Source: a virus (lineage: Duplodnaviria; Heunggongvirae; Uroviricota; Caudoviricetes). From it: 64,000 nucleotides of DNA. The position numbers were made by a program. The stretch lies in IMG/VR virus record IMGVR_UViG_3300046047_000272; one strand, written 5' to 3'. Shown piece by piece: positions 6,001 to 9,000 of the stretch (its first letter is position 1; each line of letters opens with the position of its first letter).

Positions 6001-9000
6001 TCGATTTCGATGGCGTCATTAACGTTTTCCCTAACGACAAAGCTATGAGACGCGGTGGATTTCAAGATACGATATCAATAGCTAAGGATCATCCAAGATA
6101 TTGGTTATACCATCCAGATCATGCGTACAGGCCAGCATCCAAAGCGACCGTATCCGTCCAATATTATCGGAACATTAAACTTCGATGGTCGGCAACTCTT
6201 GTTGACGAGCTGAAGAATCTAGCCATAGACGAATCGTTAGCATGGACGTGGCTCAGTACGTGGAGACCATATATCAGAGAAACCCTTGACCCAGTATTAG
6301 AGATACCATCCTTCCCCATAGCTGAATGGTATACGGGATCACCATCAACGCTACAGGATCACGCCGGTAAATTCGAGACCATTCGTCAATTCATGCATGA
6401 TCAACCTCAACGACCAGTCATCTGGATTGACGATGAGGAATGCGAATCATACGCATACGATGAGCTTATTGAAGAATTCCCCCATACCCCATTGCTAATG
6501 ATTCAGCCGAATGATGAAATTGGTGTGAGTAAGCCGATGATTGATCGCATCAAAACATTCTGTAACGACCCAGTATCAATGGCCTCGTCCAGAATCAGCG
6601 AGTCATGGGAAGAATACAATAAAGATGCTAATATGACATCAGTGTGATACAATAATCACGAGATTATGATTCATGCTCATCATCGTATCTATATGAGCAT
6701 GATATCTACTATGGACAGATAACTAAGGAGGTGTGCATGAAGAGTAGGATAACCACTATAGAGGCGTCTCAGCGAAGAAAAGCTCGTCTTTTAGAGGAAG
6801 CTATTGCTCGTGGAAAACGCGAATTAGCTTTGAAGAGAATGATGACGCAACAGCCAGCCATGACTGATTAATCATGTCATCATGATGGTAGTATAGGCCC
6901 TGACAGGGCCTATAAGAATATTAGACAACGATGTCTCATGAAGGAACGATAGCCATCATTGCATAACTGGCTATCAGATGTACAGAACCGCCGGTCTAAC
7001 GGCAGCAGACCCCGTACTAGTATAAATTACTGATCCAGACTATGGTGTCCGAGGACGGCGGCTTAGCATCATGAATATAGGTTTTGCTGATGAGACACGC
7101 TGATTGTGATCCCGTTGACAATACAACAAGATCTATAGTATGATCTATGCAGAACAGTGACCACAACGATGAGAAGGGATATCATGACCACATTATTCAT
7201 TATGAGAGGATTTCCTGGTAGCGGGAAGAGCACACTCGCTAGGAAGATGGCTCTTGAGAAGAATGCCGTCATCGTGAATCTTGATGATATGCGTATCATG
7301 CTTGGCTTATCCAAGATCCGTTGGAGAACTATCATCGATGAGATGTCCATATCAGATCGAGGCTATGCTGAGAACACCATTGCCAGAGCTGGTCTTGAGA
7401 TAATTCGACGTATGCTGAAACTTGGCCTCAACGTCATCTCCGACGCACAACATGTCGTGAACAGGGATGCGCGTCGTGAGATTCAGATAGCCCATGAGCA
7501 AGGAGCTGATATCGAACTCGTCGATTGTGATGTTGATCTGAATACACTCCTGCAGAGGAACATGACCAGGCCTGAGGATCAGCGCATCGATGAGAAGTAT
7601 ATTCGTGATCGGTATCATGGCTATCATCATTCTGCTTTCAGACCATTATCCGATCTAATCGTCAATCCAATCACACTGATGGATAAGATGCGTGATAACG
7701 CTAACGTGATTGTCAAGCCTGTCAAGGGAGAGGACGATCTCTACGCGTGCAATTTCACCAGACAAGCCTTCTTCAATCATGCATGGGATGATTACTCCTC
7801 AAAGGCCAGAGGACTGTTCATATCGCGTGACGGCACAGTCATCATGCGAGGATTCGATAAGTTCTTCAATATTGGAGAGAACGAAGAGACCTCATTATCT
7901 AACGTCGTTGATAATGTGACCTATCCTGTGCGAATAGAAGTCAAGCAGAATGGCTTCCTAGGAATCATCGGAGCTAAGGAGGATGTAGACACGTTCCGTT
8001 TCTTCTCTAAGAGCGGTAAGACGGACTACTCCGCCTTCGTTCAGCGAGGATTCATGGACGCTCTCCATCATGATAAGGATAAGATTCATCGTATCTGGAA
8101 GGTACTACGAGATCATAATGTCACCCTGGTCTGCGAGATTATCGATCAGGAGTCTGATCGTCACATCATTGCTTACGATCATTCCACCTGCTATCTAATC
8201 CACGCCATTAAGAATCAGCAGGATTTCTTCATCGACGATCAAGCAGACGATGAGATACAGACGATCGTAAATGATCCCGCGTTGTTCACTAATCGATATA
8301 TGGTGAAGAATCAACAGGAACTCCTGGACGCTATTGATAAGGCTCATGCATCGCTACGTGAAGGTGTGGTCATATATGGCTCTAATGGATACATGTGCAA
8401 GGTAAAATCCGACAGGTACCTCCATTTGAAGTCATTGCGGACTGGATTGGCAAACGTACTCATCAGACACAAGGATGAGCCTATAGGAACCGATCAGAGA
8501 ACCCAGGACATCCTCTATATTCTTCATCATGCTGACATGGGTAAGCTTGTGTACCATCGAGTCGGACTCGATAATGATGATGTGGATATCGCTTACGCTG
8601 GCACAATCCTCGATCAGCGTAAGGATCAGTAACCCTATGCGTAATGACTTGACGGTCATACAGACGATGCTTACCATGCCTGTATGACCGTCAAGTCATT
8701 GAGAAGTTAGCGTCCGTCGTCATAGTAGATGATGATCACACTCTATTACATCAATATGAAGGTCCTCAGAGTCATCATAAACATCATCTTCTAGCGTGCA
8801 GGAGTGATTTTGAGGAACCGCGGCACCGCAACGATAGAGCGTGTGCACGAGGAAGCATATCCTAGGAATACGCTCTGCAGGAGCGCCCGGTCATCCAGCA
8901 CATGGACATACGCTAGTCGCTAATTCTCGCTCAGGACTATCATCATATTCTCATACTTAATAACAGATCTATCCCTGTCTCATGTGATTAATGCAATGAA

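Follow-up and report, generated by a model that had tools for sequence, protein, structure and literature searches.

A dispersed set of putative RNA-repair genes in a very large phage

Putative repair genes of the window

In this work we have investigated a window of 64,000 nt from the phage IMGVR_UViG_3300046047_000272, and in particular the genes in it which resemble parts of RNA-repair systems: a kinase-ligase, a phosphatase of the haloacid dehalogenase (HAD) type, a kinase-phosphatase and a shortened CCA-adding enzyme (Table 1). An initial annotation, made from the DNA alone, had proposed that the kinase-ligase, the kinase-phosphatase and a standalone HD protein form a distributed toolkit for tRNA repair. 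All three open reading frames (ORFs) are present on the plus strand with the limits first proposed, and Pfam confirmed their domains, the AAA_33, RNA_lig_T4_1, Metallophos and HD/CCA families all being recovered in profile searches with E-values which chance would not give. The list of parts was incomplete, as it overlooked both the HAD gene and the loss of the Metallophos partner which usually accompanies such kinase-ligases.

Table 1. Coordinates of the features discussed, the putative repair genes standing first
Feature	Position	Strand	Basis or remark
HAD phosphatase, "Swiss-army-knife RNA repair" type, 231 aa	5952..6647	+	HAD_SAK_2 (PF18143)
Promoter-like site TTGACA-18-TATGAT, 11/12 matches	7115..7144	+	40 nt upstream of ATG 7184; consensus match only
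Kinase-ligase, 482 aa	7184..8632	+	AAA_33 + RNA_lig_T4_1
Kinase-phosphatase, 420 aa	44103..45365	+	AAA_33 + Metallophos
Head-deleted CCA-adding enzyme, 311 aa	59325..60260	+	TIGR02692, Pfam HD
IF-3 homologue	58623..59219	+	IF3_C 5.2e-28, IF3_N 1.8e-17; directly upstream of the CCA remnant
tRNA array: Pro-CGG, Pro-UGG, 90-nt GUU, Lys-CUU, Lys-UUU, His-GUG, Leu-UAA	61736..63931	+	ARAGORN
GUU (Asn) tRNA, 90 nt, long variable arm	62583-62672	+	Rfam, 51.9 bits
Small alarmone hydrolase, HD of (p)ppApp/(p)ppGpp-hydrolase type, 153 aa	43600..44061	+	42 nt upstream of the kinase-phosphatase
SpaA/SdrD-B-domain protein, 1056 aa	281-3451	+	
rIIA-like protein	16720..19560		phrog_612, 2.7e-45
Topoisomerase I in two overlapping ORFs	27376-28803 and 28800-29888	+	
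LPXTG pilin	39157-40587	+	GramPos_pilinBB and SpaA domains
Sortase	40580-41443	+	
Tandem paralogues like phage alpha-glucosyltransferase	47162-48613 and 48644-49942	-	phrog_2888, 8.4e-15 and 1.2e-5
Nudix protein like the ADP-ribose-responsive repressor NtrR	within 53538-54949	-	1.8e-14

The kinase-ligase consists of a T4-Pnk-type 5'-OH kinase (residues 1 to ~155) and an ATP-dependent RNA ligase of the Rnl1/Trl1-LIG type (residues ~165-482). Pfam places AAA_33 at residues 4-134 (2.6e-18) and RNA_lig_T4_1 (PF09511) at residues 207-412 (2e-33, 116.6 bits versus a cutoff of 28.3), the latter match covering the profile from position 1 to position 227 of 227. The mechanically called ORF opens at GTG 7157; ATG 7184 is the better start, because a GAAGGG Shine-Dalgarno sequence lies 7 nt upstream of it, the homologues start at that residue and a promoter-like site precedes it. 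When 23 homologues were aligned (alignment A1), residues G9, G14, K15, D34, R37, D87, R125, N126 and R129 of the kinase proved invariant, and we take them to be the counterparts of T4 Pnk K15, D35, R38, R122 and R126; the P-loop also has S16. In the ligase the invariant residues are R209, K226, F228, K254-Q-N256-G257 of motif I, E318 of motif III, E393-G394 of motif IV and K406-V-K408 of motif V. The K-x-N-G, EIID and K-x-K motifs noticed at the outset are real and are kept in all 23 proteins, with the correction that EIID is motif III and not motif IV. The initial annotation had also made the ligase assignment depend on the motif I lysine, and this lysine is present: K254 aligns with K148, the catalytic lysine of Chaetomium Trl1-LIG which is Met in 6n0t, and with the KEDG of T4 Rnl1.

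Searched against the PDB, the family profile matched Trl1-LIG (1.2e-19) and T4 Rnl1 (4.2e-9) on the ligase side, and on the kinase side Pnkp1 of the Pnkp1-Rnl-Hen1 complex (5.4e-18), T4 Pnk (1ly1, 5.5e-18), seryl-tRNA(Sec) kinase (4e-17) and the CthPnkp kinase (7e-12). The AlphaFold2 model has a predicted local distance difference test score (pLDDT) of 91.8. With this model Foldseek matched the ligase to Trl1-LIG (3.5e-15, template modelling (TM) score 0.66, 359 columns) and to T4 Rnl1 (3.4e-13, TM 0.52-0.54 over just 273-312 columns), and the N-terminal domain to the CthPnkp kinase and T4 Pnk (both ~3e-6; TM 0.82 for T4 Pnk). The C-terminal tRNA-specificity domain of the T4 Rnl1 type was not recognized, the T4 RnlA equivalog TIGR02308 giving 27.6 bits versus a cutoff of 242. 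In a viral structure library the top matches of the model are phage RNA ligases, including a 781-aa Lactobacillus phage protein (806 columns) and gp265 of Bacillus phage G (457 aa, 453 columns), and the length of these two alignments suggests that they span both domains. Giant-virus entries named kinase/ligase match as well, so kinase-plus-ligase fusions as such are not new. A large subgroup of A1 (~565-590 aa; P0018, P0032, P0053 and P0065, loci L089-L119) carries an insert of ~100 residues between kinase and ligase.

Directly upstream of the kinase-ligase lies the HAD gene, and this adjacency is repeated on an independent assembly (L001). The HAD_SAK_2 match is marginal (3.5e-6, 27.9 bits versus a gathering cutoff of 27.5); in the translation we read motif I as FIDFDGVI and motif IV as IWIDDEE. 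A sequence search of the PDB with this protein gave no matches. Jumbo phages are reported to have phosphatases of this family as standalone RNA-repair proteins (PMC7824862), and by homology the protein is a candidate for the 3'-phosphatase partner of the kinase-ligase. Its position is of interest for another reason. A Metallophos gene encoding 232-376 aa abuts the start of the kinase-ligase in 16 of the 22 loci of the closest clade, and also in L174 and L175 (start-stop coupled). When a homologue of this upstream partner was searched for in the window, none was found, and the HAD gene stands in its place. A kinase-ligase without its usual coupled metallophosphoesterase means that the 3'-healing activity must come from elsewhere. 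Other contig neighbours of the Metallophos and kinase-ligase genes are Fic/DOC and DUF3846 proteins in L095 (7809-9220) and a Nudix gene on the opposite strand near the operon in L174 (8670-9185) and L175 (559-1008), all of which may be further conflict-related partners. In the window, a TnpB/Cas12f-like protein (3834-5294, plus strand; Cas12f1-like_TNB, 1.6e-16) is encoded ~650 nt upstream of the HAD gene, so that a mobile element lies a short way from the repair genes; the kinase-ligase homologue in L174 likewise has a TnpB in its vicinity.

The kinase-phosphatase (AAA_33 3.6e-12, Metallophos 2.2e-11) joins a Pnk-type kinase (residues 1 to ~165) to a binuclear metallophosphoesterase of the lambda-phosphatase/CthPnkp type (residues ~180-420). 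In an alignment of 17 homologues (A2) the kinase keeps the P-loop (K15, T16), the catalytic D32 and R131, and the phosphoesterase has D187, D214, R218, N246, H247, H314 and H377 as invariant residues. Its motif I reads GD187-I-Q189-G, versus GDLHG in lambda phosphatase, and the Gln is found in 16 of 17 relatives. The AlphaFold2 model (pLDDT 88) matched in Foldseek the CthPnkp kinase (4jt2, 1.5e-8), lambda phosphatase (8.7e-8) and the CthPnkp phosphatase domain (4j6o, 7e-7). The metallophosphoesterase is also similar to protein phosphatases and Ap4A hydrolases, and PHROG 246, a NinI-like Ser/Thr phosphatase family, matches at 5e-12. A recent duplication of the kinase of the kinase-ligase as the source of the second kinase was ruled out, as the two are only 24% identical (E 0.001).

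The gene just upstream of the kinase-phosphatase encodes a small alarmone hydrolase, which matches the "(p)ppApp hydrolase" of PDB 7smg (5.1e-24), phrog_990 (1.9e-46) and the RelA/SpoT model TIGR00691 (1.3e-8). The two genes are not adjacent in the relative L172, and it is uncertain whether the hydrolase belongs to the repair set. It could counter an alarmone-based defence or, more speculatively, strip the 3'-pyrophosphate which toxic small alarmone synthetases put on tRNA.

What had been called a standalone HD protein is indeed homologous to CCA-adding enzymes and without their polymerase head; it is not an independent HD family. It covers positions 199-465 of the 466 of TIGR02692 (1.7e-74; 251 bits versus a cutoff of 438.8), that is the C-terminal 57% of the actinobacterial CCA-adding enzyme, and the E. 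coli-type Cca model NF008137 matches at 1.1e-7. Pfam finds HD (PF01966, 5.8e-11) and, weakly, PolyA_pol_RNAbd (PF12627, 3.2e-4). The end of the neck, the body and the HD phosphohydrolase domain are retained, and the Pol-beta nucleotidyltransferase head (PF01743, residues 1 to ~220) is gone. A tblastn search of the 64 kb with four full-length enzymes found nothing for the head at E < 0.01, and matches begin only from residue ~221. The HD residues H...HD...H...D are intact, and FEHS, LHDVGK, GHE, LHMR and KAD are conserved in a three-way alignment. In a related phage (L006) a full-length CCA gene of 481 aa lies in the order DnaX, small ORF, IF3, CCA and reverse 292-aa ORF; since the gene order is the same, the gene of the window represents a head deletion of the resident CCA gene. 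A second headless copy (P0139 in L004) has 72% identity and a different neighbourhood. Between the two copies the nonsynonymous divergence (pN) is 0.22 and the synonymous divergence (pS) is 0.81, a saturated value, and by this comparison of sequences the headless gene is under purifying selection and not decaying. Among contigs long enough to judge, the truncation was found in just two protein clusters (P0138 and P0139). With its head lost the protein cannot add CCA. The HD domain of E. coli Cca has reported phosphoesterase activities, and by analogy the headless protein may clean phosphorylated tRNA 3' ends.

The annotated IF-3 gene and the phage's own tRNAs are there as well. ARAGORN detected seven tRNAs, in an array which continues to the edge of the window; six of them pass the gathering score of Rfam RF00005 (52-69 bits) and His-GUG was called by ARAGORN only. 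An Rfam scan of the window found tRNAs only. The 3' ends of the six Rfam-supported tRNAs, read in the sequence, all lack an encoded CCA, which means that CCA must be supplied by the host or by a gene outside the window. Anticodons of the Lys-UUU, Lys-CUU, His and GUU tRNAs are typical targets of known anticodon nucleases. The GUU tRNA is itself atypical, since tRNAs for Asn are normally of the short class I and this one is long-armed.

Kinase, phosphatase and ligase modules are linked across genomes

Because the kinase-ligase and kinase-phosphatase genes are 36 kb apart, their linkage must rest on comparison. PHROG 8238, a profile of 737 positions for the single-chain kinase-phosphatase-ligase of phages, corresponds at positions 1-387 to the kinase-phosphatase (2.3e-62) and at positions 417-711 to the kinase-ligase (3.7e-65); P0134 and P0136 are fused homologues of this type. 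We fetched 160 related loci from genomes and viral contigs, the viral-contig relatives coming from an alignment-based scan, as a single-protein scan of viral contigs matched nothing. In ~90 of them kinase, phosphatase and ligase are encoded contiguously as one polypeptide, and the carriers include Saccharibacteria, Lachnospiraceae, Staphylococcus phage Twort and numerous viral contigs. The clade closest to our protein (37-62% identity), which is found in Bifidobacterium genomes and in viral contigs of 100-420 kb, has the kinase-ligase only. In L169, an Rnl1-family ligase gene lies immediately upstream of a homologue of the kinase-phosphatase. The relatives thus partition the modules as a fused kinase-phosphatase-ligase, as a phosphatase plus a kinase-ligase, or as a ligase plus a kinase-phosphatase, and the window has a kinase-ligase plus a kinase-phosphatase. 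These partitions, together with the tiling of PHROG 8238, tie the two distant genes to each other, and on the strength of these alignments we conclude that the modules are evolutionarily linked. For the kinase-ligase and the kinase-phosphatase the idea of a toolkit spread across distant genes is therefore supported by comparison, while the repair role of the headless CCA protein is its weakest link. The relatives form a natural series of freely shuffled kinase, phosphatase and ligase modules, and this series is a strong case of guilt-by-association for a widespread uncharacterised kinase-ligase clade of Bifidobacterium and large gut and oral phages.

Proposed role, alternative explanations and phage background

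What could such genes do for the phage? The analysis establishes that the genes are intact, to which domains they belong, that catalytic residues and folds are conserved and that the modules are linked in evolution, and from these we infer the substrates, the order of the steps and the biological role. We consider it probable, by homology, that the genes make up a classical heal-and-seal RNA-repair kit which mends tRNAs in the face of host attack. According to this model, a Pnk-type kinase would phosphorylate the 5'-OH; there are two copies of it, and the one fused to the ligase has all the essential residues. The metallophosphoesterase of the kinase-phosphatase, the HAD phosphatase, or both would open or remove the cyclic or 3' phosphate. 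The Rnl1/Trl1-type ligase, adenylylated on K254, would then seal the ends. The headless CCA protein, with its tRNA-binding body and HD domain, may clean tRNA 3' ends, and the phage tRNAs and IF-3 would likewise keep translation running under host attack. Such a division of labour is known in vitro, where CthPnkp heals tRNA halves and T4 Rnl1 seals them (PMC1920235). Jumbo phages combine ATP-dependent ligases, Pnk kinases, phosphatases of the HAD, calcineurin-like and HD types, CCA enzymes, tRNAs and IF3, and this set of parts is described as a means of withstanding the attacks of the host on translation (PMC7824862). The counter-defence against host ribotoxins which we suggest for the window by homology is consistent with this literature. 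That phages repair RNA against the tRNA nucleases of the host is established in T4, and for jumbo phages such genes have been listed from sequence.

Several points weigh against this model. Every function in it is read from homology, and the HAD assignment barely exceeds the Pfam threshold. In the phosphatase, the motif I histidine, a metal ligand, is replaced by Gln. The kinase on the same chain has the R38-equivalent Arg, the one three residues after the catalytic Asp, shifted by one residue, as do its two closest relatives, and in P0124 this Arg is absent. Distances of 36 and 15 kb separate the three genes named in the initial annotation, which are not transcribed together. One pathway would not need two kinases and as many as four phosphoesterases, so some of them may serve other substrates. 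The window covers 64 kb of ~491 kb.

Is it possible that these genes are not one toolkit and that just the kinase-ligase and the HAD phosphatase repair RNA? The substrates of the kinase-phosphatase would then be others, such as phosphoproteins, DNA ends or nucleotide second messengers, and the alarmone hydrolase may act with it; the HD protein would be what is left of the CCA enzyme, retained to bind tRNA or for some other hydrolase function. The wide spacing of the genes, each in its own neighbourhood, would fit this, as would the finding that no ligase lies within 10 kb of the kinase-phosphatase in L170, L171 and L172. The likeness of the metallophosphoesterase to protein phosphatases, Ap4A hydrolases and PHROG 246 points the same way, and the position of the HD gene beside the tRNAs is that of its full-length CCA ancestor. 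However, in other genomes members of the kinase-phosphatase family stand beside Rnl1-family ligases or are fused to them, both healing domains of CthPnkp are the best structural matches of the protein, and it is hard to see what a protein phosphatase or a nucleotide hydrolase would do with a polynucleotide-kinase domain. The missing coupled metallophosphoesterase also leaves a need for 3'-healing from elsewhere, and we regard separate functions as less likely. For the headless protein a further explanation would be a split CCA enzyme, the head of which is encoded by a separate gene outside the window, so that the phage tRNAs receive their CCA from the two parts joined. The lack of encoded CCA in all six Rfam-supported tRNAs, the purifying selection on the headless gene in two phages and the small share of the ~491 kb seen in the window all speak for it. 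Still, sequence resembling the head was found neither in the window nor on the contigs with the second headless copy (L004, 8.8 kb; L005, 4.8 kb), the related phage has an ordinary single-chain enzyme, and the host enzyme would be able to supply CCA. To our knowledge, no class II CCA enzyme divided in such a way is known, and we consider it very improbable here.

More questions are raised by the ligase, which resembles the fungal enzyme. Could the kit heal ends to 3'-OH,2'-PO4, with a ligase which needs this 2'-phosphate as the fungal and plant tRNA ligases do? The DxQ phosphoesterase would in that case be a cyclic phosphodiesterase (CPD) only, H327, K416 and R419 would read the 2'-PO4, and the junction phosphate would be cleared by a phosphatase or by an enzyme of the Tpt1/KptA type from a gene elsewhere. 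The ligase is indeed nearer to Trl1-LIG than to T4 Rnl1, both in sequence and in fold (see the profile and Foldseek values above). In the Chaetomium enzyme CthLIG the 2'-PO4 triad is His227, Arg334 and Arg337, the His following the motif III Glu at a distance of nine residues and both Args standing just behind motif V (PMC11404444). At these positions our protein has H327 (E318 + 9), K416 and R419, which are invariant across the ligase family, versus Ile, His and Lys in T4 Rnl1. In addition, the CthPnkp mutant H189D has CPD activity only, yields 2'-PO4 and pairs with yeast ligase instead of T4 Rnl1 (PMC1920235), and the phosphatase of the window has Gln at this very position, as do 16 of its 17 relatives. 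Yet the mutation tested in CthPnkp was His to Asp, not His to Gln, and the first Arg of the triad is Lys in our protein. The triad is present in essentially all of the ~160 related ligases, most of which share a chain with a phosphatase of the canonical GDxHG type (76 loci). Co-variation of the DxQ phosphatase with the ligase triad was rejected on these grounds, the triad being universal and DxQ confined to a few lineages. KptA/Tpt1 was found neither in the window nor at 167 loci in a range of 10 kb from the ligase, in a phmmer search of stop-to-stop ORFs of at least 60 aa at E < 1 with E. coli KptA, a single distant query which limits the sensitivity. No 2H CPDase occurs among the window ORFs scanned with Pfam, and a HAD phosphatase beside the ligase fits complete removal of the phosphate better. 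It is thus rather improbable that the kit heals to a 2'-phosphate, and equally so, on the residues available, that the ligase clade, Pnk kinase and DxQ metallophosphoesterase form a prokaryotic equivalent of the tRNA-ligase pathway known from fungi and plants. The question can be put to a biochemical test; the ligase has the fungal 2'-phosphate residues and the phosphatase is naturally substituted at the CthPnkp reprogramming position. If it were true, the 2'-phosphorylated junction would be a natural substrate for bacterial or phage Tpt1/KptA, which would bear on the unexplained distribution of these enzymes; two reports call their role unknown in taxa without a fungal-type ligase (PMC6097658, PMC6573784).

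The proposed heal-and-seal kit is carried by a very large phage, since proteins identical to the kinase-phosphatase and the HD protein are recorded on a contig of 491,046 bp; contigs of 349,703 and 419,707 bp carry related proteins. A DNA-level search with positions 5900-8700 among 50,697 phage records gave no matches, and in tblastn against the phage reference set the top identity was ~30%, to Twort-like phages of Staphylococcus, so the lineage is unrepresented there. Besides the rIIA-like protein and the two alpha-glucosyltransferase-like proteins, the phage hallmarks of the window include a T4 gp30.3-family protein, CHAP, NrdE/NrdI and DnaX. The host is likely to be an actinobacterium, although the GC content is only ~45%, because the nearest cellular homologues belong to Bifidobacterium and Collinsella for the kinase-ligase and to Streptomyces and Bifidobacterium for the CCA remnant, and the window has a cassette of sortase and SpaA-type pilin. 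A Gram-positive pilus cassette is in itself odd cargo for a lytic-looking phage.

Some other genes of the window deserve mention. In topoisomerase I, the first ORF has Toprim and positions 2-290 of the Topoisom_bac profile, and the second has Topoisom_bac positions 299-410 and the C-terminal repeat; a frameshift, a programmed split or an enzyme of two subunits could explain this. The alpha-glucosyltransferase-like pair hints at glucosylated DNA. Membrane and stress genes which are unusual in phages are also present, namely LemA, VKOR, TelA, SPFH/flotillin and TM2-domain genes (15941-16564, 21657-23652, 31290-32699 and 46575-47156), of which VKOR and TM2 were seen again in the related contigs L169 and L172. 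The gene of the NtrR-like Nudix protein adjoins ORF 53538-54101, and DUF3228 is found in the identical L003 sequence of that ORF; the pair is possibly tied to NAD/ADP-ribose conflict systems.

Relation to known repair systems

The closest full-length relatives of the kinase-ligase belong to the operon of Bifidobacterium and viral contigs and have the same architecture, AAA_33 followed by RNA_lig_T4_1. These proteins are uncharacterised and are named "RNA ligase", "kinase" or "AAA family ATPase" in the sources. Unlike this operon, the window has no abutting Metallophos gene, and a HAD_SAK_2 gene is upstream instead. The single chains of PHROG 8238 (the Twort-like "RNA ligase/polynucleotide kinase" of ~720-770 aa, also in Saccharibacteria and Lachnospiraceae) contain the same three modules and are homologous throughout, with ligase motifs and a His/Lys/Arg triad identical to those of the window. 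They differ in that the window has two genes 36 kb apart with a kinase on each half, and its ligase half falls in a separate clade, with 37-62% identity to kinase-ligases versus ~30% to the fused proteins.

With T4 Pnkp and Rnl1 the window shares the essential kinase residues (K15, D34/D35, R37/R38 and R125/R129 versus R122/R126), ligases of the same Pfam family, a HAD phosphatase and the fact that the systems are encoded by phages. Unlike in T4 Pnkp, however, the kinases of the window are fused to a ligase or a metallophosphoesterase and neither to a DxDxT HAD domain, the HAD protein being separate. The C-terminal region of the ligase is not like the tRNA-specificity domain of T4 Rnl1, and the metallophosphoesterase is an additional route which T4 does not have.

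The initial annotation had also drawn an analogy to bacterial Pnkp/Hen1, which holds less well. The kinase-then-phosphatase order is that of CthPnkp, and the CthPnkp healing modules are the best structural matches of the kinase-phosphatase. In contrast to the CthPnkp chain (TIGR04075, ~850 aa), which the kinase-phosphatase matches with 29.3 bits and the kinase-ligase with 16.8 bits versus a cutoff of 750, there is no ligase on the kinase-phosphatase chain, the ligase of the window is of the Rnl1/Trl1 type, and motif I reads DxQ, not DxH. Pfam scans of 61 of the 63 candidate ORFs of the window (at least 70 aa) found none of Hen1, 2H/LigT, RlaP, RtcB, Macro or Thg1, and among the 61 scanned ORFs of at least 75 aa there was no methyltransferase family.

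In sequence as well as in fold the ligase matches Trl1 (order LIG-KIN-CPD) best, also in the stretch which follows motif V. Trl1 likewise has a ligase and a Pnk-type kinase on one chain, and the His and the second Arg of its triad are conserved in our protein. Unlike Trl1, the protein of the window has the reversed order KIN-LIG, no 2H cyclic phosphodiesterase, Lys for the first Arg of the triad and no Tpt1 nearby. The headless protein matches the C-terminal 267 positions of the actinobacterial CCA enzyme (TIGR02692) with 44-52% identity to the proteins of Streptomyces, Bifidobacterium and phage; unlike this enzyme and E. coli Cca, it has no catalytic head. A headless CCA enzyme kept by purifying selection is a candidate for a stand-alone tRNA 3'-end phosphoesterase.

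Some architectures of this sort may already have been described in the comparative study of Burroughs and Aravind from 2016. The set of the window is a rearranged form of the known phage kit for mending tRNA and no new kind of system. What differs is the arrangement and the choice of parts: two halves which each bear a kinase, a HAD gene instead of the coupled metallophosphoesterase, a conserved headless CCA enzyme and a phosphatase with a DxQ motif.

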